DNA from: Pararhodobacter sp.
Lineage (GTDB): Bacteria > Pseudomonadota > Alphaproteobacteria > Rhodobacterales > Rhodobacteraceae
Length of the DNA: 64,000 nt
Assembly (NCBI RefSeq): GCF_034676075.1
Contig: NZ_JAUCCQ010000003.1
Span: 56,034-120,033 of the forward strand
Direction: 5' to 3'
Part shown: in pieces, positions 12,977-38,443 of the stretch
Layout: each line of letters opens with the position of its first letter
Numbering within the stretch: the stretch's first letter is position 1
The notes under the pieces: generated by a model
The model's database searches: none
Told to the model about the DNA's origin: nothing
What the model saw: the letters and a program-made list of their open reading frames with translations, nothing else
Program-made: the position numbers and the translations under genes

Positions 12977-13056
12977 CCGTGTCCGTCTGGTCGGGGTACG
13001 CCCCATCGTGCAAGCCTTCGCGCGCATCACGCACCGAAATTCCGGAGGAGGAACTC

Positions 13057-13932: not shown

Positions 13933-14053
13933 CCTGAAAGACAGCCGCGCGCCACGCTCTCGGGCGTCGCGCGCGGTCCGACACCACCCGCCCCAGCCAG
14001 CGCTTCGCTGAGGACGGGGCCCGGGCCCGACCAGCAGACCGAAAGACCCCGTC

Positions 14054-15217: not shown

Positions 15218-15219
15218 CC

Positions 15220-16745: not shown

Positions 16746-16774
16746 GGTTGCCTCCCTGTTCCACGAGCCGCCCG

Positions 16775-16789
16775 ATACCCGCCGGGTAT
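16775..16789. promoter_or_regulatory. ATAC-N7-GTAT LysR (CatR/BenM-type) recognition site
   Basis: ATACCCGCCGGGTAT, with perfect 7-bp arms, in the divergent lysR/pcaD intergenic region. Confidence 0.55.
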
Positions 16790-16864
16790 GATGCAAGACT
16801 GGCGGGCATATTGCACCACCCGCCGCACCCGTGTTCCATGCCCCCTCAGAAGGAAGGAACCAGC

Positions 16865-23988: not shown

Positions 23989-24480
23989 TCAGACCCCTTG
24001 CTGCGCGTGGAAGGGCGCGAGCAGCCGCCCGGCGAAGGTCAGCGCCATGAGCAGCGCCGCCAGCGGGATCTGCCATTGCAGCCACCAATCCATCAGCACG
24101 TAGTCACCAAAGACCATCTGCTGCGTCTGGTAAGAGCGCATCAGCACGCGCGTGCCCCAGATGCACAGGATCGCGCAGCAGGACAACCCGATCAGGTCGA
24201 TCAGCCGCTGCACGCCGCGGCGGACGGGCGGCGAAAAGCGCTCGAGAAAGACGTTGATCGACAGATGGGCATTGCGGCGCAGCAACCAGGGCGCCGTCAG
24301 GATAGCGATGCAGAAGAGCCCGATCTCGGAAAAGTCGATCAGGCCCCGGAATACGCCGAAACCAAGCCCCCGCCGGATCGACTCGGCGGCGATGGCGCAG
24401 GTCATGAGCGCGAGGATGATCCCCGACAGGACCGCAAGTGCGGTCACCACAAGGTCATAGAGGGCAATGGCTGTCTTCAT
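23989..24480 (-). CDS. dctQ: TRAP transporter small permease
   Basis: 163 aa with four hydrophobic helices. Start at ATG 24480 (MKTAIALYDL) inside ORF 23989..24738. Confidence 0.8.
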   Translation of the reverse strand: MKTAIALYDLVVTALAVLSGIILALMTCAIAAESIRRGLGFGVFRGLIDFSEIGLFCIAILTAPWLLRRNAHLSINVFLERFSPPVRRGVQRLIDLIGLSCCAILCIWGTRVLMRSYQTQQMVFGDYVLMDWWLQWQIPLAALLMALTFAGRLLAPFHAQQGV

Positions 24481-24712
24481 GTCTCGTCCTGGCTGGAGCC
24501 CCGTGGGGCGATCGCGCTCGAAAATCTCTGGAACCCGGCACGGCGCAGCGGAGCGATCCCCGCGAGACGGCACGCCTGAAAGGTCTGCGGCCGGGCGCAC
24601 CCGTCTCGCGGCAATAGAGGCCGGATTGGCCCCAGCGCACAAGGGGCGCTGCCGGGGGAAGACGGGCAAAGCGCCCCCTGCCCCGAAGGCGTCGCAGGGG
24701 CCCGCGCCCGGG

Positions 24713-25165
24713 TCAACCTGCGGGCGTTTCGGAGACAAGTTGCGCCTCGAGCCGGTCGAAGAACTCGCCCGACAGCTTGGTCGCCGTCCCTTGGATGAGC
24801 CGGGCGCCCAGTTGCGCGATCTTGCCGCCGACAGTCACGTCGACGCTGTAGTCGATCCGGGTTCCTGCCCCCTCCGGCGTCAGCGTGACCCGGGCCCGGC
24901 CCCTGGCGAAACCAGCGATGCCACCCTTGCCCGCGCCCTGCAGCACCATGCTGTCATTGGGATGCTCCTCGTCGAAGGTCACATCGCCCTTGAAGGTCGC
25001 TTTCACCGGGCCGATCTTCAGCGTAACCTCGGCCTCCATCCCGGCCTCGGTCGCGATCAGCGACTGGCAGCCCGGGATCGCTTGGCGCAGGATCTCGGGA
25101 TCGTGGACCGCGGCCCAGACATCGCGCCGGCTTGCCGCGACCAGCCGGGTGTCGGTAATTTCCAT
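24713..25165 (-). CDS. CoxG / SRPBCC family protein
   Basis: MEITDTRLVAASRRDVWAAVHDPEILRQAIPGCQSL...KIGPVKATFKG pattern of CoxG. GAGGAA RBS. Confidence 0.8.
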   Translation of the reverse strand: MEITDTRLVAASRRDVWAAVHDPEILRQAIPGCQSLIATEAGMEAEVTLKIGPVKATFKGDVTFDEEHPNDSMVLQGAGKGGIAGFARGRARVTLTPEGAGTRIDYSVDVTVGGKIAQLGARLIQGTATKLSGEFFDRLEAQLVSETPAG

Positions 25166-25383: not shown

Positions 25384-26607
25384 TCAGACAAGCGACTTCA
25401 GCGGGACTGACGAATCAGCCAGTTTGGCCGGGTCGGCCTTGACCTTCCCTTCGACCAACTTCTCGAGGAAGCGCCGCTCGCGGCCGCGGTCAAGCAGCAC
25501 ACCACCGGCCACGGCTTCTTGGTCATCAAGCCAAAAGAGCACCTCGCCTCCCTCGCCCCGGGCAACGGTCCGGGCGCCCTCGGCCCATAGTCCCACCACT
25601 TGGATGTTATGGCCGAGCTGATCGCTCCACATCCACGGAAGCTCGGCATGCTCGGTCGTCTCCCCGGTGATCGAGCGGGCAATTGCGCGCGGTTGCCGAT
25701 CGGCGTTGCGCCAGGTTTCCAACCGCTGTTGGCGACCCAGATGCGGATTCCAGCTTTCGGCGACATCGCCCGCGGCAAAGACACCCACAAGGCCGGCTAC
25801 GCGACCGGCCGAATCAGTCAAGATCCCGCCCGAGGCGCCACGATTTGCCGCTGGCACCAACTCGGACGCGGGCAGGATGCCGATGGCCGACACCACCAGA
25901 TCAGCCGCCACAACATGGGATTTTCCGACCGAATCGCGGAGGTGAATTGCCAATTCGCCGGTCTCTTCACGGATCTCCTGCACGGCGATTCCAGTCAGGA
26001 TCGTCACCCCCGCCGCCGCGTGTTTCGCAGCCAGCCAGGTTGAGGTTTCAGGTGGCAGAATCCGCGCCATGACGCGCGCGCCCGCCTCGATCACCGTGAC
26101 CGCACAGCCCAGCTCGGTTGCCGTCGCCGCAACCTCCATCCCGATGACCCCACCGCCGATGATCGCCAGCCGCAAACCCGGGGTGAGGCGCGCCTTCAGC
26201 CCCCGGCTGTCGTCGAGGCTGCGCAGCGTGCGGGCGTGTTCGCCCCCTGGAACCGGCAGGTCGCGGGGCCGGCCGCCGGTCGCCAGGACCAGATGATCGT
26301 AGGCGATTCGCTCGCCGGCGGCGGTGATGACACGGCGCCCGGCGCAATCCAGCGCAACCACGGTTTCGCCGGTCCTCAGGTCAATGCCCTGCCAGCACCC
26401 GTCCGGGTCAAGGAAAAGGCCTGCCTCCCCCTCGGCACCTTTCAACACGGCCTTGGACAGTGGCGGACGTTCGTAGGGGGGGTGCGATTCGGCGCCAATC
26501 AGCGTGATTCGGCCCGAGAACCCCTCACTGCGGAGAGCCAGGGCACAGCGGCCACCCGCCTGCCCCGCCCCAACGATCACCACCACCTCGTCCGTCATTT
26601 CGGGCAT
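25384..26607 (-). CDS. FAD/NAD(P)-dependent ferredoxin reductase (putidaredoxin/rubredoxin-reductase type)
   Basis: VVIVGAGQAGG dinucleotide fold, RITLIGAESHPPYERPPLSK, and a second fold RLAIIGGGVIGMEVA. GAGGAG RBS before ATG 26607. Confidence 0.85.
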   Translation of the reverse strand: MPEMTDEVVVIVGAGQAGGRCALALRSEGFSGRITLIGAESHPPYERPPLSKAVLKGAEGEAGLFLDPDGCWQGIDLRTGETVVALDCAGRRVITAAGERIAYDHLVLATGGRPRDLPVPGGEHARTLRSLDDSRGLKARLTPGLRLAIIGGGVIGMEVAATATELGCAVTVIEAGARVMARILPPETSTWLAAKHAAAGVTILTGIAVQEIREETGELAIHLRDSVGKSHVVAADLVVSAIGILPASELVPAANRGASGGILTDSAGRVAGLVGVFAAGDVAESWNPHLGRQQRLETWRNADRQPRAIARSITGETTEHAELPWMWSDQLGHNIQVVGLWAEGARTVARGEGGEVLFWLDDQEAVAGGVLLDRGRERRFLEKLVEGKVKADPAKLADSSVPLKSLV

Positions 26608-26633
26608 CGCGTTCTCCTCACACCTGGATTTAT

Positions 26634-26651
26634 CGTATTCCGTATACGTTA
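26634..26651 (-). promoter_or_regulatory. shared operator-like motif upstream of the ferredoxin reductase gene
   Basis: Read on the minus strand: TAACGTATACGGAATACG, about 26 nt before ATG 26607. Confidence 0.6.
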
Positions 26652-26685
26652 AATCTGTCAAGAAGGTGCAAGCCTGATCCGATAC

Positions 26686-27354
26686 TCAGCCTTGCCGCTG
26701 CTCGGCGTTTTCTGCCGCCCAGGTCTTGAAGGCCTCGCCTGCCTGCGTCAGCAGCATGGTCATCACCGCGCGCGCCTCGTCCTCATTGCCGGTGCCGATG
26801 GCCTGCGCGAGCTTCGCCATACCGTTGACAGAGACCCGGCGCATGTCCGGTCGGCGAAGGGTGTTTATCCGAATGAAATGGATGAAATCCTCATACCGCG
26901 CGATGGCCGCGACCAGCTGCCGGTTCGAGACATGCGAATAGATGTCGTCGCGGATCTTGCGATGTGCTTCGACATAGGCGTCACTCTCGCCCGTTTCGTC
27001 GAGCGTCTGGTGAATGCGGCCAGCCAGCGCGAAAAGCCGCCCAGCATCGGTCTCGCGCACCAGCTTGGCCACGGCATGCGGTTCCAGCAGCAGGCGAATT
27101 TCGATCACCTCGGAGATCTCTTCCGGCGTGAAATTCGGGAAACGGAAGCCCCGCGTCGCCTGAACCAGCAGCCCGTCGCGCACCAGCATGGCCAGCGCCT
27201 CGCGCACCGGCGTCCGCGAAACGCCCAGCTCCTGGGCCAGGTTGATCTCCTGGAACTTGGTGTCGGGATCGAACCCCCCTTCGGTAATCCGTGCCTTCAG
27301 CGTCTCGTAGACCTGTTGGCGGAGGTCGGCGACGCGCTGGATGGAATTCATCAT
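26686..27354 (-). CDS. GntR family regulator, FadR/FCD subtype
   Basis: LAQELGVSRTPVREALAMLVRDGLL HTH plus a helical FCD-like C-domain. Start at the MMNSIQ methionines. Confidence 0.85.
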   Translation of the reverse strand: MMNSIQRVADLRQQVYETLKARITEGGFDPDTKFQEINLAQELGVSRTPVREALAMLVRDGLLVQATRGFRFPNFTPEEISEVIEIRLLLEPHAVAKLVRETDAGRLFALAGRIHQTLDETGESDAYVEAHRKIRDDIYSHVSNRQLVAAIARYEDFIHFIRINTLRRPDMRRVSVNGMAKLAQAIGTGNEDEARAVMTMLLTQAGEAFKTWAAENAEQRQG

Positions 27355-27566
27355 GGGAATTGTCCGTTGCTGGGGGATCGCCGCCGTTCCACGGGGACCG
27401 CGGCCGCGACAGGACGCGGAAAACGGACGGGACAGGATGCGATCACTGGATCGACGTTTCTCAACATGTGGCACGACAGGGCGTTTCAGGCAACCGATGA
27501 CGCAGCTTTGCGCAGCGCCCGCCGCTCGGCCACCCGACATGCAGGTTTCGCTTGCCATCCGGAAAT

Positions 27567-27584
27567 TAACGTATACGGTAGACG
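27567..27584 (+). promoter_or_regulatory. shared operator-like motif upstream of the Rieske oxygenase operon
   Basis: TAACGTATACGGTAGACG, about 21 nt before ATG 27606. Confidence 0.6.
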
Positions 27585-27605
27585 TAATCCGCAGAGGAGT
27601 TACCC

Positions 27606-28889
27606 ATGACCGCCGCCCGGCTCCACGACCGCTACCCCGAACTCGGCACGGGTCCGATCCCCGTCGCGCCCTATATCGACCCGGCCTATTTCGAGCTTGA
27701 GAAGAAGTATCTCTTCAAGAACACTTGGCTGCATGTCGGCCGGGTCGAGGAATTGCCGAAGGTCGGCGACTACATGCTGCGCAATATCCCCGTGCTCGAT
27801 TCCGAGATCGTCATCGCCCGGGCGCGCGACAAGAAGCTCTACGCGTTCCACAATGTCTGCTCGCACCGACTGAACAAGATCGCCTATCAGCCGACCGGCA
27901 CGACGCGGAAATTCTTCTGCAAATTCCATGGCTGGGCCTATGACCTCGACGGCACGCTGACCGGCGTTCCCGACGAGAAGTCCTTCATGGACCTGGATAA
28001 ATCCTGCCTTGGGCTGACCCGGGTCTCGGTCGATACCTGGAACGGCTTCATCTTCATCAACGCCAATCCGGCGCCCGACGTCTCGCTCAAGGACTTCATG
28101 GAGCCGGTCTATGCCGGCTTCGAGACCTACCCGTTCGACAAGTTCACCGCCTGCTACGCCTGGAATGCGGTGGTCAATTGCAACTGGAAGGTCGCGCTCG
28201 ATGCCTTCCAGGAAACCTACCACGTCAACTACCTGCACGGCCGCTCGATCGCCTATGCGCTGCTGAAGGATGAGGACGGCAACCTGCACCCGATCGACGG
28301 TATCTGCGGTGACCTTCACCGCCGTCTGTCGATTGCCGGAGATCCGGATACCGTCTACGGAAATCCGCAAGCCGCGACCGCCGCCGCCGAGCAGGATGTG
28401 GGCGTCAACCAGACCGGCCACCGCATCGCCGCCAAGGCGCTGAAAGTGGCGCAGGGCGGCACCCGGTACGACCTGAGCGGCATCAAGCTGCCCGAGCTTC
28501 TGAACTGGACGAAACACCCGTCCTGGGCCTTCGACATCAACGTCGTCTTCCCGGATTTCTACCTGTCCTGCCGGCCGAACTATTTCCAGGCCTACAACTT
28601 CCGCCCGATCTCGCACGACAAGACGCTGTTCGAGGCGCGGGTCTACTACCCCGAGATGGTGACGGCGGGCGGGCGCTTCTATCAGGAATACATGAAGACG
28701 GCGCTGCGCGACGTCCTGCTCGAGGATCTGAGCACGCTGGAAACCACGCAAGCCGCCGCGGCGACCGGCGCCAAGCAGGAAATGATCATCCAGGATTTCG
28801 AGCTGATGGTGCGCCACCAGGCGGTGGCCATCGACCGGCTGATCGAAGAGGGGCTGCGCCGCGACGGCCAGCTCCAGGCCGCGGAATGA
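27606..28889 (+). CDS. Rieske non-heme iron oxygenase, alpha (catalytic) subunit
   Basis: Rieske motif CSHRLNK...CKFHGWAY. Mononuclear-iron motif NWKVALDAFQETYHVNYLH. AGAGGAG RBS. Confidence 0.9.
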   Translation: MTAARLHDRYPELGTGPIPVAPYIDPAYFELEKKYLFKNTWLHVGRVEELPKVGDYMLRNIPVLDSEIVIARARDKKLYAFHNVCSHRLNKIAYQPTGTTRKFFCKFHGWAYDLDGTLTGVPDEKSFMDLDKSCLGLTRVSVDTWNGFIFINANPAPDVSLKDFMEPVYAGFETYPFDKFTACYAWNAVVNCNWKVALDAFQETYHVNYLHGRSIAYALLKDEDGNLHPIDGICGDLHRRLSIAGDPDTVYGNPQAATAAAEQDVGVNQTGHRIAAKALKVAQGGTRYDLSGIKLPELLNWTKHPSWAFDINVVFPDFYLSCRPNYFQAYNFRPISHDKTLFEARVYYPEMVTAGGRFYQEYMKTALRDVLLEDLSTLETTQAAAATGAKQEMIIQDFELMVRHQAVAIDRLIEEGLRRDGQLQAAE

Positions 28890-29251
28890 GGAACCAGTCC
28901 ATGTCCAAACTCCCCCCTGAATTCGCCGCGCTCGAACCCTTTTCGGACTGGTGCCTGCCGCTGGAATCCCAGCGCAACCTGCGCCGCGTGAGCCTGGGTT
29001 TTGCCGAGATCAACGCCTTTGCCGAGGCGATGCTGCCCCAGGTCGAGGCGATCTGCGCCCATATCGACGCTCACCGCGCCGAGGATGGCAGCTACGACCG
29101 CGAAAGCCTAAACCTGTTCCACATGCTGCTGTCCCTGGCCGAAGTGGCCCCGGCCATCGAATCCTATGACCCCGAGGTCGAGGTGGTCGATGGCTACGAC
29201 ACCCGCAAGTTCGTCCCTGACGAGACGCACAAGCTGCGTCCCGCGATCTGA
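28886..29251 (+). CDS. hypothetical protein (121 aa) coupled to the oxygenase alpha subunit
   Basis: ATGA start/stop overlap with the alpha subunit. High GC3. No recognisable family. Confidence 0.6.
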   Translation: MRNQSMSKLPPEFAALEPFSDWCLPLESQRNLRRVSLGFAEINAFAEAMLPQVEAICAHIDAHRAEDGSYDRESLNLFHMLLSLAEVAPAIESYDPEVEVVDGYDTRKFVPDETHKLRPAI

Positions 29252-29261
29252 GGAAGCGTCC

Positions 29262-29681
29262 ATGCCGCAATGCCAGCTGTTCTCCTTCCGGGAGGGCCTC
29301 GACGAGGTCGTGCCCGGCGGGCTCAGGATGAAAGCCGTGGTGGGCCAGTCGCTCAGCGTCGGGGTCGTCAATTTCTGCCTGCCCGGCGGCCCCGGCATTG
29401 CCGCCAAAGCCCATGCCCATGGCGAGGAGGCGACGCTGCAGATCCGGGGAGGCTGCACCGTCAACCTCGGCTGGTCGGTCGAGGCACCGGAAGCCTCGGT
29501 CGAGCTTGAGGAAGGCATCGTCATGCTGATGCCCGCCGAACAGCCCCATTCCGGGATCAACCGCTTCGACTCCGAGGGCGAATGCCTGCGGCTGAACGTG
29601 GTGACGCCGCCGCGCCAGGAATACGGCGCCAGCGGCAACGCCAAACCCTTCTACCCGGGCGCACCGGAGGCCAAGGCATGA
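29262..29681 (+). CDS. cupin domain protein with intact metal-ligand motifs
   Basis: GAGGAAG RBS. HAHGEE...G and P..QPHSGIN match the two cupin motifs. Confidence 0.7.
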   Translation: MPQCQLFSFREGLDEVVPGGLRMKAVVGQSLSVGVVNFCLPGGPGIAAKAHAHGEEATLQIRGGCTVNLGWSVEAPEASVELEEGIVMLMPAEQPHSGINRFDSEGECLRLNVVTPPRQEYGASGNAKPFYPGAPEAKA

Positions 29682-29968
29682 GCTGCGAGATCCACGACAG
29701 CGGTCTGGGTGCCGCCCCCTTTGCCGTCCAGGGTGCCGCGCTCTCGGTCGCCATGGAACGTCTGCCGGTCGGTACATCGGCGGAGCTCTCGGCCCGGGGC
29801 GGGCCCGAGGAGATGGTCGCGCTGCTGGAAGGCAGCGCCACGCTCAGGGCCGACGATGGCGAGCATTCGCTGGTCCCCGGTACGGGCGTGCTGATCCCGG
29901 CTGGTTCGGCGCGCGAATGGACCATTCTGACCCCCGCCCTCGTGTACCGCGTCAGGGCCGCCGGATGA
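29678..29968 (+). CDS. small cupin-like protein lacking the His ligands
   Basis: ATGA overlap with the preceding gene. Beta-rich sequence ...EEMVALLEGSATLRADDGEHSLVPGTGVLIPAGSAREW with no HxH. Confidence 0.55.
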   Translation: MSCEIHDSGLGAAPFAVQGAALSVAMERLPVGTSAELSARGGPEEMVALLEGSATLRADDGEHSLVPGTGVLIPAGSAREWTILTPALVYRVRAAG

Positions 29969-30495
29969 GCGTCGAAGACCGCCTCGCCCGGCTCGAGGCC
30001 CATGCAGACATCGAGGCCGTGATGCAGGTCTACGCGGCGGCGGCGGATGCGAAGTACACCGCCCGCCACCGCAAGGCCGCGCCCGACCGGGTGGCCGAGG
30101 CCGCGCGCGCGCAGGCTGCCTGTTTCACCCCGGACGCCGAATGGCAGGCCGGCGGGTTCGGCGGCAGCCTTCACGGCCGCGTGGCGATCGAGGATTTCTT
30201 CCGTGAAGGCCCTTGGTCCTTTGCCACCCATCTCTATGCGGCGCCGCAGATTCAGGTCGCCGGCACCATAGCCGAAGCCCGCTGGCGCCTGTGGGAGCTG
30301 GGCGTCCGCGACGAGCGCAACCCTGCCATCCAGGGCCATGTCACGCTGTTGACGGGCGTGGTCCGCCAGAGCTGGCACCGTCTGCCCGAAGGCTGGCGCA
30401 TCGCCGTCATGGCCTTTGACCAGCTCCATGCCCTGACCCTTGCCACCGACACGGCGGCGCTCAGCTGCCTCATCCCCGCCGGAGACACCCCGTGA
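29965..30495 (+). CDS. NTF2-like (SnoaL_4-type) protein
   Basis: ATGA overlap. The N-terminal DRLARLEAHADIEAVMQVYAAAAD pattern is typical of SnoaL-like domains. Confidence 0.65.
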   Translation: MSVEDRLARLEAHADIEAVMQVYAAAADAKYTARHRKAAPDRVAEAARAQAACFTPDAEWQAGGFGGSLHGRVAIEDFFREGPWSFATHLYAAPQIQVAGTIAEARWRLWELGVRDERNPAIQGHVTLLTGVVRQSWHRLPEGWRIAVMAFDQLHALTLATDTAALSCLIPAGDTP

Positions 30496-31349
30496 CCGCA
30501 ACCTGCCCCGCGCCGACTGCCGCGCCCGACCCGGCGCCCGCTGCTGCCTTCCCCATCGCCGACACGGCCTGCCGCGTCGTCTCGAACGAGCCGGTGAACG
30601 CCGAATACCGCCTACTGCTGGCCGAGGCCGGGCCCACCGCGCTGACCGCCGAAGCGGGTCAGTTCTTCCAGCTCAAATGCCCGCCGACGACACAGGACCA
30701 CCCCTTCCTGCGCCGCCCGATGAGCGTCTATCGCATCGACCGGCAGAACGGGCAGATTGGCTTTCTCTACAAGGTGACCGGCAAGGGCACGCGCGGCCTG
30801 TCTACGCTGGTGCCCGGCGACAGGCTCGAGGCCATCGGTCCCCTGGGCCTGGGTTTCACCCTGCCCGCGGGGACAAAGCATGTCCTTCTGGTGGCCCGGG
30901 GCGTGGGGCTTGCCACGCTGACGCCGCTCGTGCAGATGGCCCGCGCTGCCGGGGCCGAGGTCACGGCGATCCTCAGCGCCCGCAATCCCGCCATGGTCAT
31001 GTCGCGCGACGAGCTGGCGGCGCAGGGCGCCCGGGTCATCGAGGTCACGGATACAGCGGGCGACAGCGACATGGCGCAGGTCGAGGCGCTGCTGCGGCGC
31101 CTTCACGCCGAACAGCCCTTCGATTTCGCCGCCACCTGCGGCTCGAACCGCCTGCTGCAACTGACCAAGGCGCTGAGCGCCGAATGGCAGATCGCCGGAC
31201 AGGCGGCCATGGAGGCCTTCATGGGCTGCGGCATGGGCATGTGCTATGCCTGCGTGCTGCCCGTGACCGCCCCCTCCGGCGAAACCATCTTCAAACGGGT
31301 CTGCCGCGAAGGACCTGTCTTCAGCATCGAGGAGGTCCAGTCATGGTAG
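30492..31349 (+). CDS. PyrK-like electron-transfer subunit (FAD/NAD-binding plus C-terminal 2Fe-2S) of a class-1B dihydroorotate dehydrogenase-type enzyme
   Basis: GTGA overlap. RRPMSVYRID FAD motif, LLVARGVGLATL NAD fold, and the Cys cluster CGMGMCYAC...CREGPVF. Confidence 0.8.
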   Translation: MTATCPAPTAAPDPAPAAAFPIADTACRVVSNEPVNAEYRLLLAEAGPTALTAEAGQFFQLKCPPTTQDHPFLRRPMSVYRIDRQNGQIGFLYKVTGKGTRGLSTLVPGDRLEAIGPLGLGFTLPAGTKHVLLVARGVGLATLTPLVQMARAAGAEVTAILSARNPAMVMSRDELAAQGARVIEVTDTAGDSDMAQVEALLRRLHAEQPFDFAATCGSNRLLQLTKALSAEWQIAGQAAMEAFMGCGMGMCYACVLPVTAPSGETIFKRVCREGPVFSIEEVQSW

Positions 31350-32284
31350 ACCTGTCCGTCCAGATCGGCAGCGTCTCGCTGCGCAACCCGGTGATGCCCG
31401 CCTCGGGGACCATCGCCGAAGGCTTTGCCGAGATCGTCGACCTCGGCCGGCTCGGTGCGATCGTGCTGAAGACCATCACCCCCGACATCCGCCAGGGCAC
31501 CCAGCCGCCGCGGGTGGCCGAGTTCACGGATGCCACGCTGTTTTCCATCGGCATCCCCTCGAAGGGGCCGGACTACCTGCTTGATTCCACCCTGCCGGTC
31601 TATGCCGATTTCGGGGTGCCGGTGGTGGCCAGCGTCTCGGCCGACAGCGCCGAGGATTTCGGCACGCTCGCGGCCTATATCTCGGCCCCCGGTGTTGCGG
31701 CGATCGAGGCCAATGTCTCGTGCCCGAACCTGCGCGCCCATGGCCAGGCCTTCGGCATGGACCCCGAGGCCACGGCCGAGGTGATCCGTGCCATGAAGGC
31801 CAGGACCGACACGCCGATCTGGGCCAAGCTCACCCCCAATGTCGGCGACATCGCCCAAATCGCCCGGGCCGCCGAGGCCGCTGGCGCCGATGCGCTGGTG
31901 GTGTCGAACGCGCTCTTGGGCATGGCTGTCGATGCCGAGAACATGCGCCCCCGACTTGGCAATGTGATTGGCGGACTAACGGGCAACGCGGTCAAGCCGA
32001 TCATCCTGCGCATGGTTCATCAGGTGGCGCAGGCGGTGTCGATCCCGATCATCGGCTGCGGCGGCATCGCCAACGGCGAGGATGCGGTGGAGTATCTGCT
32101 CGCCGGAGCGACTGCCGTGCAATTCGGCACCGTCAACTTCATCGAACCGGCGGCGATGGAGGAGGCCATCGCCTGGATCGAGGCCTATTGCCGCCGCCAT
32201 GGCGTCACCGAGGTCCGCGCCCTGACTGGGGCCATGAGCCCCCGCCACGACCAGAAGTCGCCCCTGCAAAGCGCCGTTCTCTGA
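31343..32284 (+). CDS. dihydroorotate dehydrogenase class-1B catalytic-subunit-like flavoenzyme (PyrD/PreA family)
   Basis: NPVMPASGT, active-site NVSCPN, TPNV, and FMN-binding IGCGGIANGEDAVEYLLAGATAVQFGT. 7-nt overlap with the pyrK-like gene. GAGGAGG RBS. Confidence 0.85.
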   Translation: MVDLSVQIGSVSLRNPVMPASGTIAEGFAEIVDLGRLGAIVLKTITPDIRQGTQPPRVAEFTDATLFSIGIPSKGPDYLLDSTLPVYADFGVPVVASVSADSAEDFGTLAAYISAPGVAAIEANVSCPNLRAHGQAFGMDPEATAEVIRAMKARTDTPIWAKLTPNVGDIAQIARAAEAAGADALVVSNALLGMAVDAENMRPRLGNVIGGLTGNAVKPIILRMVHQVAQAVSIPIIGCGGIANGEDAVEYLLAGATAVQFGTVNFIEPAAMEEAIAWIEAYCRRHGVTEVRALTGAMSPRHDQKSPLQSAVL

Positions 32285-32291
32285 GGATCCG

Positions 32292-32606
32292 ATGAGCGAC
32301 TGGACCGAACTTTGCGCCGCCGACGCCCTGCCCGAGGGCGAGGCAAAGGGCTTCACCATCGACGGGCTCAGGCTCTGTGCGGTCAATGACGGGACCGGGA
32401 TCTTCGTCGTCGCCGACCTCTGCACGCATGGGCAGGCCTATCTGTCCGACGGGTATTTCGACGCCGAGGAATGCGTCCTCGAATGTCCGCTGCACGGGGG
32501 GCTCTTCAGCTACCGCGATGGCTCGCCACAGGGCGACCCGGCGGAAAAGCCTGTTCGTTCCTTCCCCATCCGGGTCGAGGGCGGCCGCGTGATGGTGCAG
32601 CTATGA
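32292..32606 (+). CDS. Rieske-type [2Fe-2S] ferredoxin component
   Basis: 104 aa with CTHGQAYL...CPLHGGLF. Confidence 0.85.
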   Translation: MSDWTELCAADALPEGEAKGFTIDGLRLCAVNDGTGIFVVADLCTHGQAYLSDGYFDAEECVLECPLHGGLFSYRDGSPQGDPAEKPVRSFPIRVEGGRVMVQL

Positions 32607-33583
32607 ACCGGCGCGTCGTCATCCTCGGCGCCGGGGGCACCATCGCCATGGCGGGGGCGCATGCCTACGATTGGGTCGATTACGGCGATACCGGGATCAT
32701 CAATCCGGTGGACGAGATCGTCGCCGGCATGGATTTCGGGCTTCCCGGGGTGACGCTGGACCTGCGCAGTTTCCGCATGCTGCCCTCGACCGGGATCACG
32801 CCCGAGGACTGGCTGGATCTCGCGCAGACCATCGACACGCTCTGTCACACGGACGCCCCCGCCGGGATCGTGGTGACCCACGGCACGGCGACGATGGAGG
32901 ATACCGCCTTCTTCCTGCATCTCACGCAGCGGGTCGATGTGCCGGTGATCCTGACTGGCGCACAGCGGCCACCGAATACCGAAGGCTCTGACGCCGCCGC
33001 CAACATGCGCCACGCCATCGCGGTCGCCGCCAGTGGCACGCTGCCGGGCGGCGCCTATCTGGTGATGGACGCAAAGATCCTGCCCGCCGACCGCGCGTCC
33101 AAGACCGCGAACCACGCGCTCGATGCCTTCGAAGCGCCAGACGGCGGCCCCTTGGGAACGGTGAACGCCGACGGATCGCTGACCCTGTTCAATGCGCCGC
33201 TGCCCAGGCCGCATGTCTTCGCGCGGCCACGGGCGCCGCTGCCTCGGGTCGGTGTCGTCATCTCCTATCCAGGTGCCGGGGGCGAGGTGGTCGAGGCGCT
33301 GACCGCCTCGGGTGTTGCCGCATTGATCAGTGCCGGTTTCCCCCCCGGCCGCCCCACCCCCGGCGAGCGCGCGGCGATGCAGCGCGCCGCCGGGGCCGGG
33401 GTGCTGGTCGTGCAATCCTCGCGCGCGCCCCGGGGCCGGGTGCCCTTGCAGCGCTGGAATGAAGAGGCCGGGATCCTCTCGGGCGGCGGTCTGTCGCCCG
33501 CCAAGGCCCGGATCCTCGTGATGCTGGCCCTGGCCGAAGGGATGGCCCGGGACGAGATCCAGGACCTGCTTCTGTCCTGGTGA
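32603..33583 (+). CDS. L-asparaginase/glutaminase family amidohydrolase with an atypical active-site motif
   Basis: ATGA overlap. GAGGTIAM retains the Thr nucleophile. HGTATMEDTAFFL replaces the canonical HGTDT. SKT...LDAFEAP retains the Lys. Confidence 0.8.
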   Translation: MNRRVVILGAGGTIAMAGAHAYDWVDYGDTGIINPVDEIVAGMDFGLPGVTLDLRSFRMLPSTGITPEDWLDLAQTIDTLCHTDAPAGIVVTHGTATMEDTAFFLHLTQRVDVPVILTGAQRPPNTEGSDAAANMRHAIAVAASGTLPGGAYLVMDAKILPADRASKTANHALDAFEAPDGGPLGTVNADGSLTLFNAPLPRPHVFARPRAPLPRVGVVISYPGAGGEVVEALTASGVAALISAGFPPGRPTPGERAAMQRAAGAGVLVVQSSRAPRGRVPLQRWNEEAGILSGGGLSPAKARILVMLALAEGMARDEIQDLLLSW

Positions 33584-33796: not shown

Positions 33797-35719
33797 TCAG
33801 CTGTGGTCGGGCTCGCGCTGCAGGATGACCTGCTCGCCCGTCACCCGTGCCGCCTGTCGGACCATCACCATCGCCACAACGATGATCAACGTGCCCGAGA
33901 GCGCCAGCACCACATGCGGTGCGACGGCGGCAACGGCGGCGCACAGGAACAGCGGTCGCAGCCAGAGAACGCGGGTATTGCCCGCGACCCCCTCGACCGA
34001 GACCGCCATGGCCGCGGTCGCGGCGACACCCCCAACCACCGCCAGCGTGTTGGCGAGGGGGTCCGCCAGCAGCATCAGACCAGGGTTCCAGACGAAGGCG
34101 AAGGGCATCAGAAAGCCCACGCTCGCAAGTTTCATCGCATCGAAGGCGATGCTGAACGGATCGGCCCGGGCTATCGCCGCTGCCGCCAGCGCCGCCACCG
34201 CGATGGGTGGTGTCAGGGCCGAGAGCACGGCAAAGACCAGCAGGAACATGTGGCTTTGCAGCAGCGGATAGCCGAGTGCCGCCAGCGCCGGCCCGACCAG
34301 AACCGCAGCCAGGATATAGGCCGAGGGCGTCGGCATCCCGAGGCCGAGGATGATCGTCACCACCGCGGCGATGACCAGCGTCAGCAGCGCATGCCCGCCG
34401 CTGACCGACAGGATGACGCTCGCCGCCTTCATGCCGAGCCCGGTCATCGTCAGCCCGCCGATCACCAGCCCGGCCGCGGCGCAGGCGCCGGCCACGGGCA
34501 GGATGCTCAGCGTCGTCTCGCCCAGCCCTTCGACGATCTTCCACAGCGTGAGCCGCGTGCTGGGCAGGATGGCCGAGGCCACGACGACCGACAGCACCCC
34601 CATGCCCGCCGTCAGGTTGGGTGAATAGCCCGCGACCAGGACGCCGACGATGATGGCGATGGGGATCAGGAACACCCAGCCGGTGCGGAAGGTCTCGGCC
34701 GCCGAGGGGATATCGCCCTCGGCCGGGCGCAGATCCTCGTTCACCGCGCGCAGATGCACCTGCAGGAACACGCCGAGGTAGTAGAGCAGCGCCGGAACCA
34801 GCGCCGCCATGATTACCTCGCGGTAGCCCACATTGGTGTATTCGGCGAGGATGAAAGCGGCCGAGCCCATGATCGGCGGCATCAGCGAACCGCCGGTCGA
34901 GGCCGCGACCTCGACGGCGCCGGCAAAGCGCGCCCGGTAGCCGAGCTTCTTCATCACCGGGATGGTGATCGAGCCGGTGGCCACCACATCCGAGGTGGGC
35001 GAGCCCGACATCGTGCCGTAGAGCCCCGAGGCGATCACCGCCACCTTGGCCGGGCCGCCGCGGGTGCGGCCGGTCAGCAGCGTGGCCAGCGAGAAGAAGA
35101 AATCGCCGCCGCCCGCCTTAGCCAGGAAGGTGCCGAACATGACGAAGAGGAAGACGTAGCTGGCGACCACCTTGATCGGCACGCCGAACAGGCCGTCGGT
35201 GGTGAAGACCAGGATATCCAGGAGATAAGAGAACTCGTCCACGCCGTGGCCGAAGGGCGGGGGCAGCAGGCTGCCGAAAAGATTGTAGGCCAGAAACAGG
35301 CTGACCACGAGGGTCAACGCCAGCCCGGTCGTGCGCCGCGTCGCCTCGAGCGTGAGCGCCAGCAGCAGGCTGCCGAAGGTGAATTGCGCCGGCGTCAGTG
35401 CGTCCAGCAGGCTGATCCGCAGCGAGATCGTCTCGGCCGAGGTGAAGAAGAAGATGCCGCAGGCCAGGCTCAGGCCGCTGAGCGCCCAGTCGTAGACCGG
35501 CACCCGGTCGGGCGCGTTCGGCGTGGCGCCGATGGCGATGAACAGCAGCGTGAAGATCCCGTTGACGAACAGGATCCCCAGGATCAGCGGGTCCGAGATG
35601 GTGAAGATGTTGGCGTAGATGACCCAGAGCGAGAACAGCGCCGCGGCAATGACCAGCAGCCTGTTCCAGCGGGCCGCAAACATGCGTCTGCGGCCCGTGG
35701 AAAGTAGCGCAGCCATCAT
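33797..35719 (-). CDS. TAXI-type TRAP transporter fused permease (DctQ/DctM-like fusion)
   Basis: 640-aa polytopic protein. ATGA overlap with the upstream TAXI binding-protein gene. Confidence 0.85.
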   Translation of the reverse strand: MMAALLSTGRRRMFAARWNRLLVIAAALFSLWVIYANIFTISDPLILGILFVNGIFTLLFIAIGATPNAPDRVPVYDWALSGLSLACGIFFFTSAETISLRISLLDALTPAQFTFGSLLLALTLEATRRTTGLALTLVVSLFLAYNLFGSLLPPPFGHGVDEFSYLLDILVFTTDGLFGVPIKVVASYVFLFVMFGTFLAKAGGGDFFFSLATLLTGRTRGGPAKVAVIASGLYGTMSGSPTSDVVATGSITIPVMKKLGYRARFAGAVEVAASTGGSLMPPIMGSAAFILAEYTNVGYREVIMAALVPALLYYLGVFLQVHLRAVNEDLRPAEGDIPSAAETFRTGWVFLIPIAIIVGVLVAGYSPNLTAGMGVLSVVVASAILPSTRLTLWKIVEGLGETTLSILPVAGACAAAGLVIGGLTMTGLGMKAASVILSVSGGHALLTLVIAAVVTIILGLGMPTPSAYILAAVLVGPALAALGYPLLQSHMFLLVFAVLSALTPPIAVAALAAAAIARADPFSIAFDAMKLASVGFLMPFAFVWNPGLMLLADPLANTLAVVGGVAATAAMAVSVEGVAGNTRVLWLRPLFLCAAVAAVAPHVVLALSGTLIIVVAMVMVRQAARVTGEQVILQREPDHS

Positions 35720-36702
35720 TCCGCCAGCAACCCGGCTTCCCGGTAGGCCGCGGCCGCACCCGGGTGGAAGGGGATGACGCTGGGCGTGGCCAGCAGCTCG
35801 ACCGTCAGATCGCCCATCGAGGAATGGACCGCGCGCATTTCGTCGAGGTGCTCGATCAGGGCGGCGGTGATCGTATGCGCCACCTCGTCGCTGAGCTGGT
35901 CATGGGTCAGCAGCAGCGCCCCCAGCGCGGAACTCGCCACATCGTTGGGCTGGTTGGAATAGCTGCCGCCGGGGATGATCATCCGGCCGGTGCCGTATTG
36001 GGCATTGGTGGCCTCGATCACCGCCTCGGGCACTTCCAGCAGCACGACATCGCTGTTCTCGTCGACGGCGCGGAAGCTCGAATGCAGTACGAAGATGCCG
36101 TTGGTGATCATGTCGAGGCGACCGTCCTGCATCAGCTCGGCCTGTTCGCTCGACCCGGCCCGCACCAGCTGCCCGCCATTGGCCGCCAGCGCCTCTTCGG
36201 TCACGCCCGCCTCGGCCAGCATGAAGAGCGCGAGGTCCGAGGTGATGTTGCCCGGCCGGTTGATCCCGATCCGCAAGGGCGCGCCGCTGGTGGCGATGTC
36301 GTCCAGGCTGTCGATGCCGTATTGTTCGGCGACACCGCGATCGAGGAAGAAATGCATCGGCGCCCAATTGTAGAGGTAGCCGATGGCGCGCAGGTTCTCG
36401 ATCGGCTCGCGGAAGGGGGCGGTGCCGGCCAGGGCCACGGTCGCCTCGGCGTCATGGGCCAGACCCAGATCGACGCGGTGGCTGGACAGAAGGCCGATAT
36501 TGGCGAAACCGCCGCCCGTGGATTGATAGGTCACGACCGAGGCGGGATCGGCCGCCTTGGCGACCCGGTCCAGCCCGACGCCGACCAGCGACCAGAGCCC
36601 GCCGGGGCTGGCGCCCGCCAGGTTGAGGTTCACCGCCTGGGCCTGGGCGCATCCGGCAGACAGGGCGACCGCGAGGGCGGTCACCAGGGGTTTGAAATTC
36701 AT
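35716..36702 (-). CDS. TAXI family TRAP transporter solute-binding protein
   Basis: Signal peptide ending CAQAQA. Motifs GASPGG.W and YQSTGGGFANIGLL. GGGAGGA RBS before ATG 36702. Confidence 0.8.
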   Translation of the reverse strand: MNFKPLVTALAVALSAGCAQAQAVNLNLAGASPGGLWSLVGVGLDRVAKAADPASVVTYQSTGGGFANIGLLSSHRVDLGLAHDAEATVALAGTAPFREPIENLRAIGYLYNWAPMHFFLDRGVAEQYGIDSLDDIATSGAPLRIGINRPGNITSDLALFMLAEAGVTEEALAANGGQLVRAGSSEQAELMQDGRLDMITNGIFVLHSSFRAVDENSDVVLLEVPEAVIEATNAQYGTGRMIIPGGSYSNQPNDVASSALGALLLTHDQLSDEVAHTITAALIEHLDEMRAVHSSMGDLTVELLATPSVIPFHPGAAAAYREAGLLAE

Positions 36703-36844
36703 GTCATCCTCCCTTTCAGACATGGTCGTGGCGATGGACCGGCCCTGGTCGAGACACTCCTCCCGGGTGGTCCGGCTGCGTCTTCCCGTCTGATTCCCCG
36801 GCGCGCGTCGCATGGTGACACAGAGCGTCCGTGCAGGCGAAAAG

Positions 36845-36863
36845 ATATAACTTAGACGTCTAT
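36845..36863. promoter_or_regulatory. ACTTAG-containing operator-like site (contains the perfect palindrome TAGACGTCTA)
   Basis: ATATAACTTAGACGTCTAT directly abuts the predicted -10 of the TAXI promoter. Confidence 0.45.
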
Positions 36864-36893
36864 TTTGTAGCGAGGAACCTTTCTTTGCGTCAA
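36864..36893 (-). promoter_or_regulatory. sigma70-like promoter for the TAXI-TRAP operon
   Basis: Minus strand reads TTGACG, an 18-nt spacer, then TACAAA. The local stretch is AT-rich. Confidence 0.35.
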
Positions 36894-37050
36894 GGAGAAA
36901 CACCGGGGACTTGACATTTTATCATTGTTTTTCATTGATCTACGCCGGATTCCGGCCGCCAAATGGACACCCCACCCGGCCGGCTTTCCCGGCAGGCGCT
37001 CCCCCTCCGCCCCGGCAGTGGCCGAGGCACTCCTTCCCTTGCGGTGCCCC

Positions 37051-38331: not shown

Positions 38332-38391
38332 CGCTTGGGTCCTTCTGTTCCGCAACCGCCCGCCGGAAGGGGCGGCTGCAAGCCTGTTGAC

Positions 38392-38414
38392 AGATAATAC
38401 TTAGCTATCTAAGT
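38392..38414. promoter_or_regulatory. ACTTAG-N4-CTAAGT inverted repeat in the divergent oxygenase/reductase region
   Basis: AGATAATACTTAGCTATCTAAGT, with perfect 6-bp arms. Confidence 0.5.
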
Positions 38415-38443
38415 CTTTCAAGGAATTTCTGAGCGGAGGATGC

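Follow-up and report, generated by a model that had tools for sequence, protein, structure and literature searches.

Why does a gene pair resembling the two subunits of a class 1B dihydroorotate dehydrogenase (DHOD-B) lie among the components of a Rieske oxygenase? The pair belongs to a nine-gene array at positions 27606-33583 of a 64,000-nucleotide stretch of DNA from Pararhodobacter sp. (NCBI RefSeq assembly GCF_034676075.1, contig NZ_JAUCCQ010000003.1, positions 56,034 to 120,033 of the forward strand), which we call the window. A preliminary description, made from the letters of the window, had pointed out the PyrK-like and PyrD-like pair, and its position inside a Rieske-oxygenase operon is confirmed here; the same mid-operon order recurs across three bacterial classes. 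We consider it very probable that the array belongs to a conserved catabolic cluster in which the PyrD homologue and an asparaginase homologue have both changed substrate. The general kind is familiar, a Rieske-oxygenase catabolic operon feeding a catechol pathway. New are the retooled DHOD-B pair, the retooled asparaginase, an oxygenase subfamily made of an alpha subunit and a helical partner, and a recurring module in which that oxygenase is coupled to an amidase.

All nine open reading frames (ORFs) are on the plus strand, and every one is in frame with one terminal stop. The first encodes the alpha subunit of a Rieske non-heme iron oxygenase (27606-28889, 427 amino acids (aa); PF00355 E = 9e-18, PF00848 E = 4e-26) and the second its small helical partner (28886-29251, 121 aa; no Pfam or NCBIfam match). 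These are followed by a metal-type cupin (29262-29681, 139 aa; Cupin_2 E = 1e-3, under the cutoff), a second small cupin without metal ligands (29678-29968, 96 aa; Cupin_2/Cupin_3 E of about 3e-4 to 8e-4) and an NTF2/SnoaL-like protein (29965-30495, 176 aa; SnoaL_4 E = 5.5e-13). The PyrK-like subunit, a flavin adenine dinucleotide (FAD)/[2Fe-2S] protein for electron transfer with NAD(H), starts with GTG (30492-31349, 285 aa; PF10418 E = 5e-15), and the PyrD-like flavin mononucleotide (FMN) dehydrogenase comes next (31343-32284, 313 aa; PF01180 E = 6e-62). A Rieske-type ferredoxin (32292-32606, 104 aa; PF00355 and PF13806, with AndAb and HcaC as best NCBIfam models) and an asparaginase-fold amidase (32603-33583, 326 aa; PF00710 and PF17763) complete the array. 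When recomputed, the tight packing described earlier held: neighbouring genes overlap by 4 nt at 29678, 29965, 30492 and 32603 and by 7 nt at 31343-31349, and the only spacers measure 10 and 7 nt. The ATGA overlap at 28886 stands as a matter of ORF coordinates and is replaced by an 11-nt gap if the second gene starts at ATG 28901. That start, which gives 116 aa, is probably the real one, because a GAGGAA Shine-Dalgarno sequence lies 7 nt upstream of it, a database entry has 116 aa, and residues 1-8 of the longer version are not conserved. A consensus scan of the plus strand inside the array found no promoter-like or terminator-like site, which is weak evidence in a high-GC alphaproteobacterial host.

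Loci for comparison came from a scan of one genome per species (79 loci) and from plasmids and metagenomes, and we called a locus core-complete if it had the alpha subunit, the 121-aa protein, cupin A and the asparaginase-like gene. At least 64 loci are core-complete, and they come from Alpha-, Beta- and Gammaproteobacteria and from Binataceae. Nearly all 64 also have cupin B, the NTF2-like protein and the ferredoxin, in unchanged order. Since content and order recur in this way in 64 loci from three proteobacterial classes and the Binataceae, the arrangement is not due to chance; the oxygenase components had earlier been called scattered, but an order conserved across loci is not unusual. The cluster occurs in Rhodobacterales, Rhizobium, Pinisolibacter, Azospirillum, Novosphingobium and Sphingobium; Paraburkholderia, Caballeronia, Cupriavidus, Ralstonia, Herbaspirillum, Pandoraea, Pigmentiphaga and Pseudomonas are others, along with Binataceae and further metagenome-assembled genomes (MAGs). 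The alpha subunit of the window is 99% identical to a Pararhodobacter aggregans protein, and the window, which matches contig NZ_QDDR01000018, is assigned to that species. Paroceanicella profunda carries the entire cluster on a plasmid of 190 kb. We take the nine genes to be the core of a conserved catabolic cluster that is built of modules and moves horizontally.

The modularity is clearest for the DHOD-like pair. Together, pyrK and pyrD are present in 48 of the 64 core-complete loci and jointly missing from the other 16, and the PyrK-like protein is always found with PyrD. Azospirillum ramasamyi has, at the site where pyrD would be expected, a 96-aa "hypothetical" gene that is a remnant of the pyrD 3' end (67% identity over 75 aa), and because this remnant stays in position we attribute the absence of pyrKD there to deletion. 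In Cupriavidus necator A5-1, pyrK and pyrD form a separate unit a few kb away, beside a TetR-family gene of their own, with a third gene that we call fam24. This gene is found only with pyrKD (29/48 pyrKD-positive against 0/16 pyrKD-less loci, p = 1.4e-5), as are a molybdenum (Mo) hydroxylase of the xanthine dehydrogenase (XDH) family and CoxG (11/48 against 0/16, p = 0.05); these p-values are indicative only, the loci being phylogenetically non-independent. The fam24 product is a 240-aa protein without a Pfam family that has a sub-threshold EthD match, and a PDB search with it gave no match. A fam24 homologue (43-46% identity) also occurs on the Agrobacterium pusense plasmid pR76 (locus L091 of our catalogue, 9001-9735), where the neighbours encode MarR, an acyl-CoA ligase, an ABC transporter, a cyclase-family protein, a short-chain dehydrogenase/reductase (SDR) and a thiolase and recall the iad auxin-degradation locus. 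This linkage is uncertain: insertion sequence elements lie between, and the neighbouring racemase is not homologous to the Amdase-family gene of the cluster. The latter, an Amdase/maleate-isomerase-like gene, is present at 35 loci; EutA and arylmalonate decarboxylase are the models that it matches best, both below threshold. Five pyrKD-less loci from Binataceae and other MAGs (L015, L018, L024, L042, L060) have genes of the PrpD/MmgE family and for an iron-containing alcohol dehydrogenase (maleylacetate-reductase-like) and no catA, which suggests another fate for the ring product or the C4 product.

Both members of the pair are recognisable by homology. The PyrD-like protein scores 329 bits against NF005574 (cutoff 269) and 287 against TIGR01037 (cutoff 270), matches Lactococcus lactis DHOD-B (1EP1) with a phmmer E of 4.5e-69, and is annotated as a DHOD in every genome. 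The best NCBIfam models of the PyrK-like protein are DHOD electron-transfer subunits, yet it reaches 132 bits against a cutoff of 314. Its architecture is nevertheless that of such a subunit, with an FNR-like FAD/NAD domain, a C-terminal [2Fe-2S] cluster of the form CxxxxCxxC...C and the 7-nt overlap with pyrD. The motifs previously read from the translations (RRPMSVY, C-x4-C-x2-C...C, NVSCPN and GCGGIxxGxD) are all there.

The substrate pocket has changed. In class 1A DHOD, Asn67 makes the two strongest hydrogen bonds to orotate, at N1-H and C2=O, while Asn194 (the later Asn) binds N3-H/C4=O and Lys43 binds the 6-carboxylate (PMC4427443). The cluster PyrDs retain the carboxylate-binding Lys, both Asn residues flanking NxSCPN and the later Asn; the catalytic Cys of NVSCPN is kept in 43/43 and the FMN motifs are intact. 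The canonical MLNAIG, however, reads TLFSIG (Met to Thr and Asn to Phe), and the NT after the later Asn reads NA in all 43. The Asn67-equivalent (class 1A numbering) is Phe in 42 of the 43 and Trp in one, while 120 of 130 diverse representatives drawn from a library of 1.8 billion proteins have Asn at this site and not one has Phe. Cluster PyrD lacks the complete orotate-binding set of one Lys and four Asn. Given this pattern, the substrate would be expected to offer a lactam NH-C=O, adjacent C-H/C-H and a carboxylate, with a hydrophobic part at the site that takes N1-H/C2=O of orotate; as far as the residues can tell, 2-oxoquinoline-4-carboxylate would fit. The pair thus shares with DHOD-B (1EP1) an FMN TIM-barrel with the NxSCPN Cys and an FAD/[2Fe-2S] subunit. 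It differs in the Asn-to-Phe change, the Met-to-Thr change two residues earlier and the Thr-to-Ala change, all essentially invariant in the clade. Another difference, from both DHOD-B and orotate catabolism, is its place in an oxygenase operon without a dihydroorotase, in a cluster for which it is dispensable.

A phylogeny had been proposed as a check; a neighbour-joining tree places the 43 cluster PyrDs in a monophyletic group of their own, and their sister group consists of proteobacterial PyrDs from apparent orotate-catabolic clusters. The preliminary description had stated that such pairs are known from biosynthesis and from clostridial orotate fermentation; the proteobacterial orotate-type clusters of the sister group escape that statement. 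We saw these on replicons or plasmids of Roseomonas (L086, 8922-12759), Variovorax (L087, 7484-14705) and Nitratireductor (L088, 6017-12780). They comprise a transporter, pyrK, pyrD, a Zn-hydrolase or carbamoylase and an orotate phosphoribosyltransferase-like gene, with a dihydroorotase annotated in the Variovorax copy only; their PyrDs keep MLNAIG and NT, including the orotate-binding Asn. By gene content they look like aerobic reductive orotate catabolism outside clostridia. For the oxygenase-linked pair, the comparison speaks indirectly against a biosynthetic role, because it is dispensable (16/64 loci without it, and the Azospirillum remnant), plasmid-borne in Paroceanicella, surrounded by catabolic genes, in a clade of its own and changed in its orotate pocket. 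It is probably a neofunctionalised offshoot of a catabolic orotate reductase, and probably inactive on orotate.

The ninth gene shows a second change of the same kind. It had been listed without a name, and we identify it as asparaginase-like from PF00710 and PF17763; its altered pocket had been overlooked, as had the link to catechol cleavage and the adjacent Mo hydroxylase resembling quinoline oxidoreductase. We compared 65 cluster asparaginase-like proteins with Escherichia coli AnsB. The catalytic Thr12, Tyr25, Thr89 and Lys162 are kept in 65/65 and the carboxylate-binding Ser58 in 62/65. Three positions differ in 64 of the 65 proteins, with Gln59 replaced by Thr or Val, Asp90 by Ala and Asn248 by Arg, and Glu283 is Phe, Tyr or Trp in 59/65. 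From the structure of E. coli asparaginase II (EcAII) we take Gln59, Asp90 and Glu283 to be the residues that hold the alpha-amino group of the substrate, Asp90 belonging also to the second triad, Thr-Lys-Asp. The cluster protein falls under all NCBIfam asparaginase cutoffs (TIGR00520, 177 bits against 314). Set against type II L-asparaginase and glutaminase-asparaginase, it has the same fold, both catalytic pairs (Thr/Tyr and Thr/Lys: Thr12, Tyr25, Thr89, Lys162) and Ser58; it departs from type II L-asparaginase in lacking Asp90, Gln59 and Glu283, in scoring below the cutoff, in being cytoplasmic and in being linked to an oxygenase operon. It probably no longer acts on asparagine. Because the alpha-amino ligands are replaced, its amide substrate would have to be one without an alpha-NH3+ group, and from the residues kept it should be a carboxamide two carbons from a carboxylate, that is, a keto-, aryl- or unsubstituted succinamate. 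A role of the enzyme as a C-C hydrolase of beta-aspartyl ketones (kynurenine or dihydrokynurenate) was considered and downgraded on account of the lost alpha-amino ligands.

Genomic links point to the aromatic product. In Cupriavidus, Ralstonia and Paraburkholderia loci, catA is the next gene after that of the amidase, about 100 bp away and in the same orientation, and one such operon-adjacent CatA (L038) passes the equivalog cutoff for proteobacterial catechol 1,2-dioxygenase (427 against 392 bits). A member of the catechol 1,2-dioxygenase family is encoded within 10 kb of the cluster in 14 loci, including that of Pararhodobacter oceanensis. Full cat/pca sets occur in Azospirillum, annotated beside the cluster, and in P. 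oceanensis (catalogued as L002 and L085). The window itself has an intradiol dioxygenase gene at 12697-13932, with a real start at about 13050, recognised by Pfam and scoring under equivalog cutoffs. Nearby are a muconate cycloisomerase gene (catB, 14054-15217; TIGR02534, 391 against a cutoff of 335), a 3-oxoadipate enol-lactonase gene (pcaD, 16748-17644; TIGR02427, 305 against 256) and, within 12697-17644, glutathione S-transferase and LysR genes assigned by Pfam. The aromatic product is likely to be catechol.

The oxygenase is of the three-component type, with alpha subunit, Rieske ferredoxin and ferredoxin reductase all identified. The reductase gene is at 25384-26661 on the minus strand (Pyr_redox_2 and Reductase_C domains; best models HcaD and AndAa), and in Betaproteobacteria it is inside the operon. 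In the alpha subunit, C85/H87/C105/H108 of the CxH...CxxH Rieske centre and H206/H211 of the iron site are invariant in 17 homologues, and the nearest solved structures align over residues ~16-225 only. The absence of a canonical beta subunit, noted before, was borne out: no protein of the operon matches PF00866 (Ring_hydroxyl_B). The 121-aa protein, said to be unassignable, indeed matches neither a Pfam or NCBIfam family nor a fold in the PDB, and all 82 homologues are named "hypothetical". Its AlphaFold2 model is a four-helix structure with a predicted local distance difference test (pLDDT) score of 86, and compared with PDB folds it gave no match at E < 3. Homologues adjoin distant alpha subunits (33-37% identity) on all four plasmids inspected (Cupriavidus, Sphingomonas, Rhodococcus, Acinetobacter), the family hidden Markov model (HMM) matching these neighbours with E of 4e-30 to 2e-22. 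Adjacent tblastn matches to alpha and the 121-aa protein were found in Streptomyces, and three such pairs in Novosphingobium; 13 of 16 plasmid records that match the 121-aa protein also carry a match to alpha. Since its homologues lie directly beside even distant alphas, we regard the helical protein as an obligate partner of this alpha subfamily.

The profile and structure searches suggested earlier were informative for the NTF2-like protein, gave weak Pfam matches only for the cupins and, as said, none for the 121-aa protein. The NTF2-like protein had been offered as a stand-in for the beta subunit because of its fold; its AlphaFold2 model (pLDDT 94) instead has Foldseek top matches among enzymatic dehydratases and lyases: BaiE (bile-acid 7-alpha-dehydratase), LinA, scytalone-dehydratase-like proteins, LdpA lyase and AtzH. 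The top 50 matches include no genuine beta subunit of an oxygenase, and we rejected a beta-subunit role on the strength of this fold search. Judged by its model, the protein probably acts as a dehydratase, hydratase or lyase instead. Y23, D28 and H89 are invariant, and this Tyr/Asp/His set seems to recall active sites of dehydratases. One cupin has metal ligands (HxH...E...H) and the other does not, as had been described. In the metal-type cupin, K-x-H-x-H-G-E-E...P...H-x-G-x-N is conserved at 90% or more across 68 sequences, and the protein is weakly similar to 3-hydroxyanthranilate dioxygenase; in the second cupin there is no conserved His cluster among 65 sequences.

The window also encodes the XDH-family Mo hydroxylase at 19010-22674 on the minus strand, with the FAD subunit at ~21883-22674 and the 2Fe-2S and Mo subunit at 19010-~21830, assigned by their Pfam domains. 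The best solved relative of the Mo part (19010-21355) is the large subunit of quinoline 2-oxidoreductase (QorL, 1T3Q) at 451 bits; the next scores 347, and nicotinate dehydrogenase 121. The FAD, 2x[2Fe-2S] and molybdenum cofactor modules of a Qor-type enzyme are all present and QorL is the closest relative. A CoxG-like SRPBCC protein, an accessory of Mo hydroxylases, is encoded at 24713-25165 on the minus strand (PF06240 E = 2e-29), and its gene co-occurs with pyrKD-positive clusters only.

We lean towards a reading in which the cluster degrades an aromatic N-heterocyclic or lactam carboxylic acid to catechol by means of three modules, A to C. Conservation, modular make-up, pocket substitutions, phylogeny and genomic links are observed; which compound is degraded, by what chemistry, and in which direction PyrKD works are what we infer. 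In anthranilate dioxygenase chemistry, dioxygenation takes place at both substituted carbons, and the nitrogen and the carbon substituent leave. For an N,ortho-C-substituted benzene to become catechol, the nitrogen would have to leave and the carbon substituent would have to leave as an electrophile (carboxyl, acyl or alpha-hydroxyalkyl). The amidase in every version of the module would be explained if a lactam nitrogen leaves as a primary amide.

Module A, found in nearly every locus, comprises the alpha subunit and its helical partner, two cupins, the NTF2-fold lyase or dehydratase, the ferredoxin, the reductase and the amidase. The oxygenase would attack the benzo ring of a lactam at the N-bearing carbon, and the ring nitrogen would leave as a primary amide. 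Its substrate may be 4-hydroxy-2-oxo-1,2,3,4-tetrahydroquinoline-4-carboxylate or the five-ring isomer dioxindole-3-acetate, each a benzylic carbinol with a carboxylate. Dioxygenation, expulsion of the amide and a retro-aldol or elimination step, for which the NTF2-fold protein or a cupin is a candidate catalyst, would yield catechol and a C4 amide-acid of the 2-oxosuccinamate type. The amidase would turn the amide of 2-oxosuccinamate or of a substituted succinamate into a C4 dicarboxylate and ammonia, and catechol would enter the ortho-cleavage pathway. 2-Oxosuccinamate would suit this enzyme because it is the alpha-keto analogue of asparagine and the scaffold has lost the alpha-amino ligands and gained an Arg.

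Module B, the PyrK/PyrD-like pair and, elsewhere, the 240-aa EthD-like protein, would oxidise or reduce the C3-C4 bond beside the lactam carbonyl. Our best guess for the couple is 2-oxo-1,2,3,4-tetrahydroquinoline-4-carboxylate and 2-oxo-1,2-dihydroquinoline-4-carboxylate, with NAD(H) serving via PyrK. The latter compound is a benzo-fused isostere of orotate in which N3-H/C4=O and the carboxylate are kept and a benzene ring replaces N1-C2=O, in exact agreement with the changes in the pocket. Working as a dehydrogenase, PyrKD would oxidise the tetrahydro acid, a ring-expanded isomer of oxindole-3-acetate, and hydration would install the carbinol, in parallel to IacE. Module C, the Qor-like Mo hydroxylase with CoxG, would feed quinoline-4-carboxylate-type compounds into the same pool of 2-oxo acids. 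A benzo-fused lactam carboxylate is the kind of substrate that we favour on balance, and its assignment as 2-oxoquinoline-4-carboxylate or oxindole-3-acetate is tentative. Equally conjectural is the scheme as a whole, in which the DHOD-B descendant would be a lactam C-C dehydrogenase or ene-reductase, the asparaginase descendant an omega-amidase for a keto- or aryl-succinamate, and both would work with a new type of Rieske oxygenase, its alpha subunit paired with the helical protein in place of a beta subunit, and an NTF2-fold lyase in converting compounds of the oxindole-3-acetate or 2-oxoquinoline-4-carboxylate type to catechol and oxaloacetate or another C4 acid.

Several points weigh against this reading. 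The substrate is deduced from pocket changes and genomic context only. The association of the XDH-family enzyme with pyrKD is of borderline significance among loci that are phylogenetically non-independent, and the window itself is without the fam24 and Amdase-family genes present at other loci. Its own intradiol dioxygenase scores under the catechol-dioxygenase cutoffs, and the amidase alignment is less certain near Glu283 than for the motif-level changes at Gln59 and Asp90. The proposed pathway assigns no definite role to the two cupins, the helical partner, fam24 or the Amdase-family protein. If the oxygenase attacked at C8/C8a, the product would be the 3-substituted catechol 2,3-dihydroxyphenylsuccinamate, not catechol itself, and an extra lyase step would be needed. 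The PyrKD reaction may run either as dehydrogenation with hydration, by the logic of IacE, or as reduction of a 2-quinolone; the reductive direction matches a tetrahydro metabolite that reportedly occurs in Agrobacterium.

Among other explanations, the one that survives best moves the substrate to the 4-oxo series. The Mo enzyme would convert quinaldate to kynurenate, PyrKD would reduce this to 2,3-dihydrokynurenate, and C4a/C8a dioxygenation in the manner of anthranilate dioxygenase, followed by a retro-Claisen step, would give catechol and an aspartate or beta-aspartyl intermediate, to be handled by the asparaginase-fold enzyme. With its C4=O, C3-H and C2 carboxylate, kynurenate is another isostere of orotate with a fused benzo ring, and the catechol and Qor-like links fit it equally well. 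As a natural metabolite of tryptophan it is common in soil and sea, and quinaldate 4-oxidoreductase belongs to the same Mo-hydroxylase family. Both altered pockets, however, make this series improbable. Kynurenate keeps the N-H beside the carboxylate and loses the N3-H/C2=O edge, so that the Asn for N1-H/C2=O would be expected to be useful, yet it is replaced; the Asn binding N3-H/C4=O is kept, again the opposite of expectation. The aspartate or beta-aspartyl product would have an alpha-amino group, and the amidase is without all three alpha-amino ligands.

Could the pair still be an orotate/dihydroorotate enzyme, biosynthetic or catabolic, that is hitch-hiking in the operon? PyrD does exceed the DHOD equivalog cutoff (329 against 269) with its catalytic Cys and FMN motifs intact, and the sister clade appears to act on orotate. 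We think this very unlikely, since the strongest orotate ligand, Asn67, is Phe in 42/43 cluster PyrDs and in 0/130 others. The pair moreover sits in the middle of oxygenase genes in fixed order across three classes, is plasmid-borne in Paroceanicella, is lost together with fam24 in 16 clusters and, unlike the sister clusters, has no dihydroorotase or carbamoylase alongside.

Slightly less probable still is a monocyclic pyridine carboxylate, with isonicotinate oxidised to 2-hydroxyisonicotinate or citrazinate, its ring reduced by PyrKD and an amide hydrolysed, as in nicotinate pathways ending in maleamate. 2-Pyridone-4-carboxylate is an orotate isostere without N1-H/C2=O as well, most pyridine pathways begin with a Mo hydroxylase, maleamate or succinamate could be substrates of the amidase, and 35 loci have the Amdase/maleate-isomerase-like gene. 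The genomic links argue otherwise: the amidase gene is directly followed by one for a genuine catechol 1,2-dioxygenase, whole cat/pca sets adjoin the cluster, uptake is by an AAHS-type transporter, the Mo subunit scores 451 bits to quinoline oxidoreductase against 121 to nicotinate dehydrogenase, and a homologous module is linked to indole oxidation. Least probable of all is that PyrK/PyrD is an extra electron-transfer or reductase system for the Rieske oxygenase with no organic substrate of its own: PyrK does belong to the FNR-like FAD/[2Fe-2S] superfamily that includes oxygenase reductases, with weak matches to BenC, GbcB and MmoC, but nearly all clusters have a dedicated ferredoxin and reductase (the great majority of those with pyrKD and most of those without), PyrD retains the catalytic Cys and the carboxylate-binding Lys while its pocket shows directed, invariant changes rather than decay, and 16 clusters persist without the pair.

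The indole-linked module is one parallel to the benzo-fused lactam pathway that we prefer. On Acinetobacter plasmid pYUSHP14-1 (L093, 7535-14961) and a plasmid of Novosphingobium EMRT-2 (L094, 6601-10191), genes for an amidase, alpha subunit, helical protein, NTF2-like protein and Rieske ferredoxin form a module. The alpha subunit is 33% identical to that of the cluster (E 1e-78), the ferredoxin 34%, and the HMMs match the helical and NTF2-like proteins with E of 4e-30 and 1.5e-16; the gene order is the same as in the cluster, with the amidase gene attached. It differs in that the amidase is of the acetamidase/formamidase type, so that a smaller amide is expected, and in having no cupins, PyrKD or Mo hydroxylase and being linked to indole-oxidation genes. 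In Acinetobacter it is joined to genes for an SMO-type indole monooxygenase, a flavin reductase and an SDR, and it appears to be an uncharacterised indole-degradation variant replacing IifA. The Novosphingobium EMRT-2 plasmid has three alpha/helical pairs. Sadauskas is said to have reported in 2017 that indole enzymes of the IifC/D/B type make 3-hydroxyindolin-2-one. That compound is the next substrate and a structural homologue of dioxindole-3-acetic acid, or DOAA (PMC7225977).

The iac pathway of auxin degradation resembles the cluster in its catechol end product, its Rieske oxygenase, SnoaL-fold protein, small protein and amidase, and in that its C3 hydroxyl arises via dehydrogenation and addition of water. 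Its gene cluster has the IacH amidase and the gene order iacB-iacC. In this pathway the hydroxy-oxindole DOAA is converted to catechol, a step for which "no intermediate has been proposed", the DOAA C3 hydroxyl comes from water after an oxidation step, IacI has the SnoaL fold, IacB is a small protein of unknown function and catABC is nearby (PMC7225977). The resemblance is functional only, as the operon and its conserved neighbours contain no ACAD-like (IacA), SDR (IacE) or Ring_hydroxyl_B gene. The cluster differs further in that its amidase has the asparaginase fold rather than the amidase signature, a canonical beta subunit is missing, and the PyrK/PyrD-like proteins and the Mo hydroxylase are present. 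The Variovorax iad pathway was also considered as the same system and rejected, its enzymes being different ones.

With the quinoline and quinoline-4-carboxylate pathways (Qor and the 2-oxo-1,2-dihydroquinoline 8-monooxygenase OxoOR), the cluster shares a Mo hydroxylase closest to QorL and, after that enzyme, a Rieske oxygenase, which here too would act on a 2-quinolone. Its alpha subunit is only remotely related to OxoO (E ~ 1e-3), and the quinoline pathways described so far include no DHOD-like enzyme, no asparaginase-fold amidase and no ortho-cleavage of catechol. Metabolites of quinoline-4-carboxylate are said to include 2-oxo-dihydro and 2-oxo-tetrahydro acids and 2,3-dihydroxyphenylsuccinate, and Lingens and co-workers reportedly obtained the 2-oxo-tetrahydro acid and 2,3-dihydroxyphenylsuccinate from quinoline-4-carboxylate degraders. 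A reductive PyrKD would agree with these products, and catechol would then be reached only with an additional lyase. According to our literature search, 2-oxo-1,2-dihydroquinoline-4-carboxylic acid is a plant natural product. A full-text search, mostly without subscription journals, found no paper on the cluster, which is widely conserved in bacteria and apparently undescribed.

One consequence concerns annotation: every genome with the cluster names the two genes "dihydroorotate dehydrogenase" and "asparaginase", which is probably incorrect for no fewer than 43 proteins in the first case and 65 in the second and misleads metabolic reconstructions. The pair would also be a natural example of neofunctionalisation, from orotate reductase to an enzyme for a benzo-fused analogue, centred on one Asn-to-Phe switch with two neighbouring changes, and the switch is a testable specificity determinant for the DHOD family. 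The comparison defines a widespread subfamily of Rieske oxygenases whose alpha subunit always comes with a fold-orphan four-helix protein. For the gap in the iac pathway between hydroxy-oxindole and catechol, it offers a candidate logic: the lactam nitrogen would depart as an amide before the side chain comes off. Should the substrate prove to be oxindole-3-acetate or 2-hydroxyquinoline-4-carboxylate, the cluster would matter for how bacteria of the rhizosphere and the sea turn over compounds derived from auxin; if it is an auxin catabolite, these bacteria would have a third route for auxin-derived carbon beside iac and iad.

Upstream of the array, a divergent GntR/FCD regulator is encoded at 26686-27558 on the minus strand (PF00392 and PF07729). 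Its GntR domain begins at residue 80, and its true start is probably about 65 codons inside the ORF; the Paroceanicella orthologue has 217 aa. The intergenic region between the GntR and alpha genes contains a tandem palindrome, TAACGTATACGGTAGACGTAAT, at 27567-27588. A motif containing (T/C)GTATACG recurs at the corresponding position of 10 GntR-type loci, which belong to Rhodobacterales, Rhizobium and a Bordetella MAG (the window, L004, L006, L007, L009-L012, L014 and L085), with a near-perfect version, TAACGTATACGGTATACGTTAA, in L011. GT-n-AC cores are typical of GntR operators, and the GTATAC tandem palindrome is a probable operator.

Transport genes surround the catabolic genes. Those for a tripartite ATP-independent periplasmic (TRAP) transporter are beside the Mo hydroxylase (DctP, 17989-18942, plus strand) and interleaved with it (DctM, 22671-23987, and DctQ, 23989-24738, both minus strand), and in other Rhodobacterales, too, the cluster has DctPQM genes at its flanks and comes with a GntR regulator. 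Betaproteobacterial clusters have a major facilitator superfamily transporter (best models the AAHS aromatic-acid/H+ symporter, PcaK and MhpT), a porin and a TetR regulator. The AAHS-type and TRAP transporters speak for an aromatic acid as the substrate. Downstream of the array, a TAXI-type TRAP transporter with fused permease and binding protein is encoded at 33797-36903 on the minus strand; its membership in the system is uncertain, and among the 81 loci compared it occurs at the P. aggregans locus only.

The region 37051-39388 encodes another Rieske oxygenase, LigXa-like and on the minus strand (PF19301 E = 6e-133), together with a divergent FNR-like/2Fe-2S reductase on the plus strand (38444-39388); in other species this oxygenase is not conserved beside the cluster. 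Upstream of the catabolic island are genes for a PrpF-family isomerase and a TctA tricarboxylate transporter, at 9173-10306 and 6050-7996. Further along the window, a low-GC island at 51449-55516 (0.50-0.59 against about 0.66) encodes a PseB-like Polysacc_synt_2 protein, an MptE-like protein, a NeuB-family protein and one ORF without a family, and is probably a horizontally acquired locus for the biosynthesis of a nonulosonic acid of the pseudaminic or legionaminic acid type.

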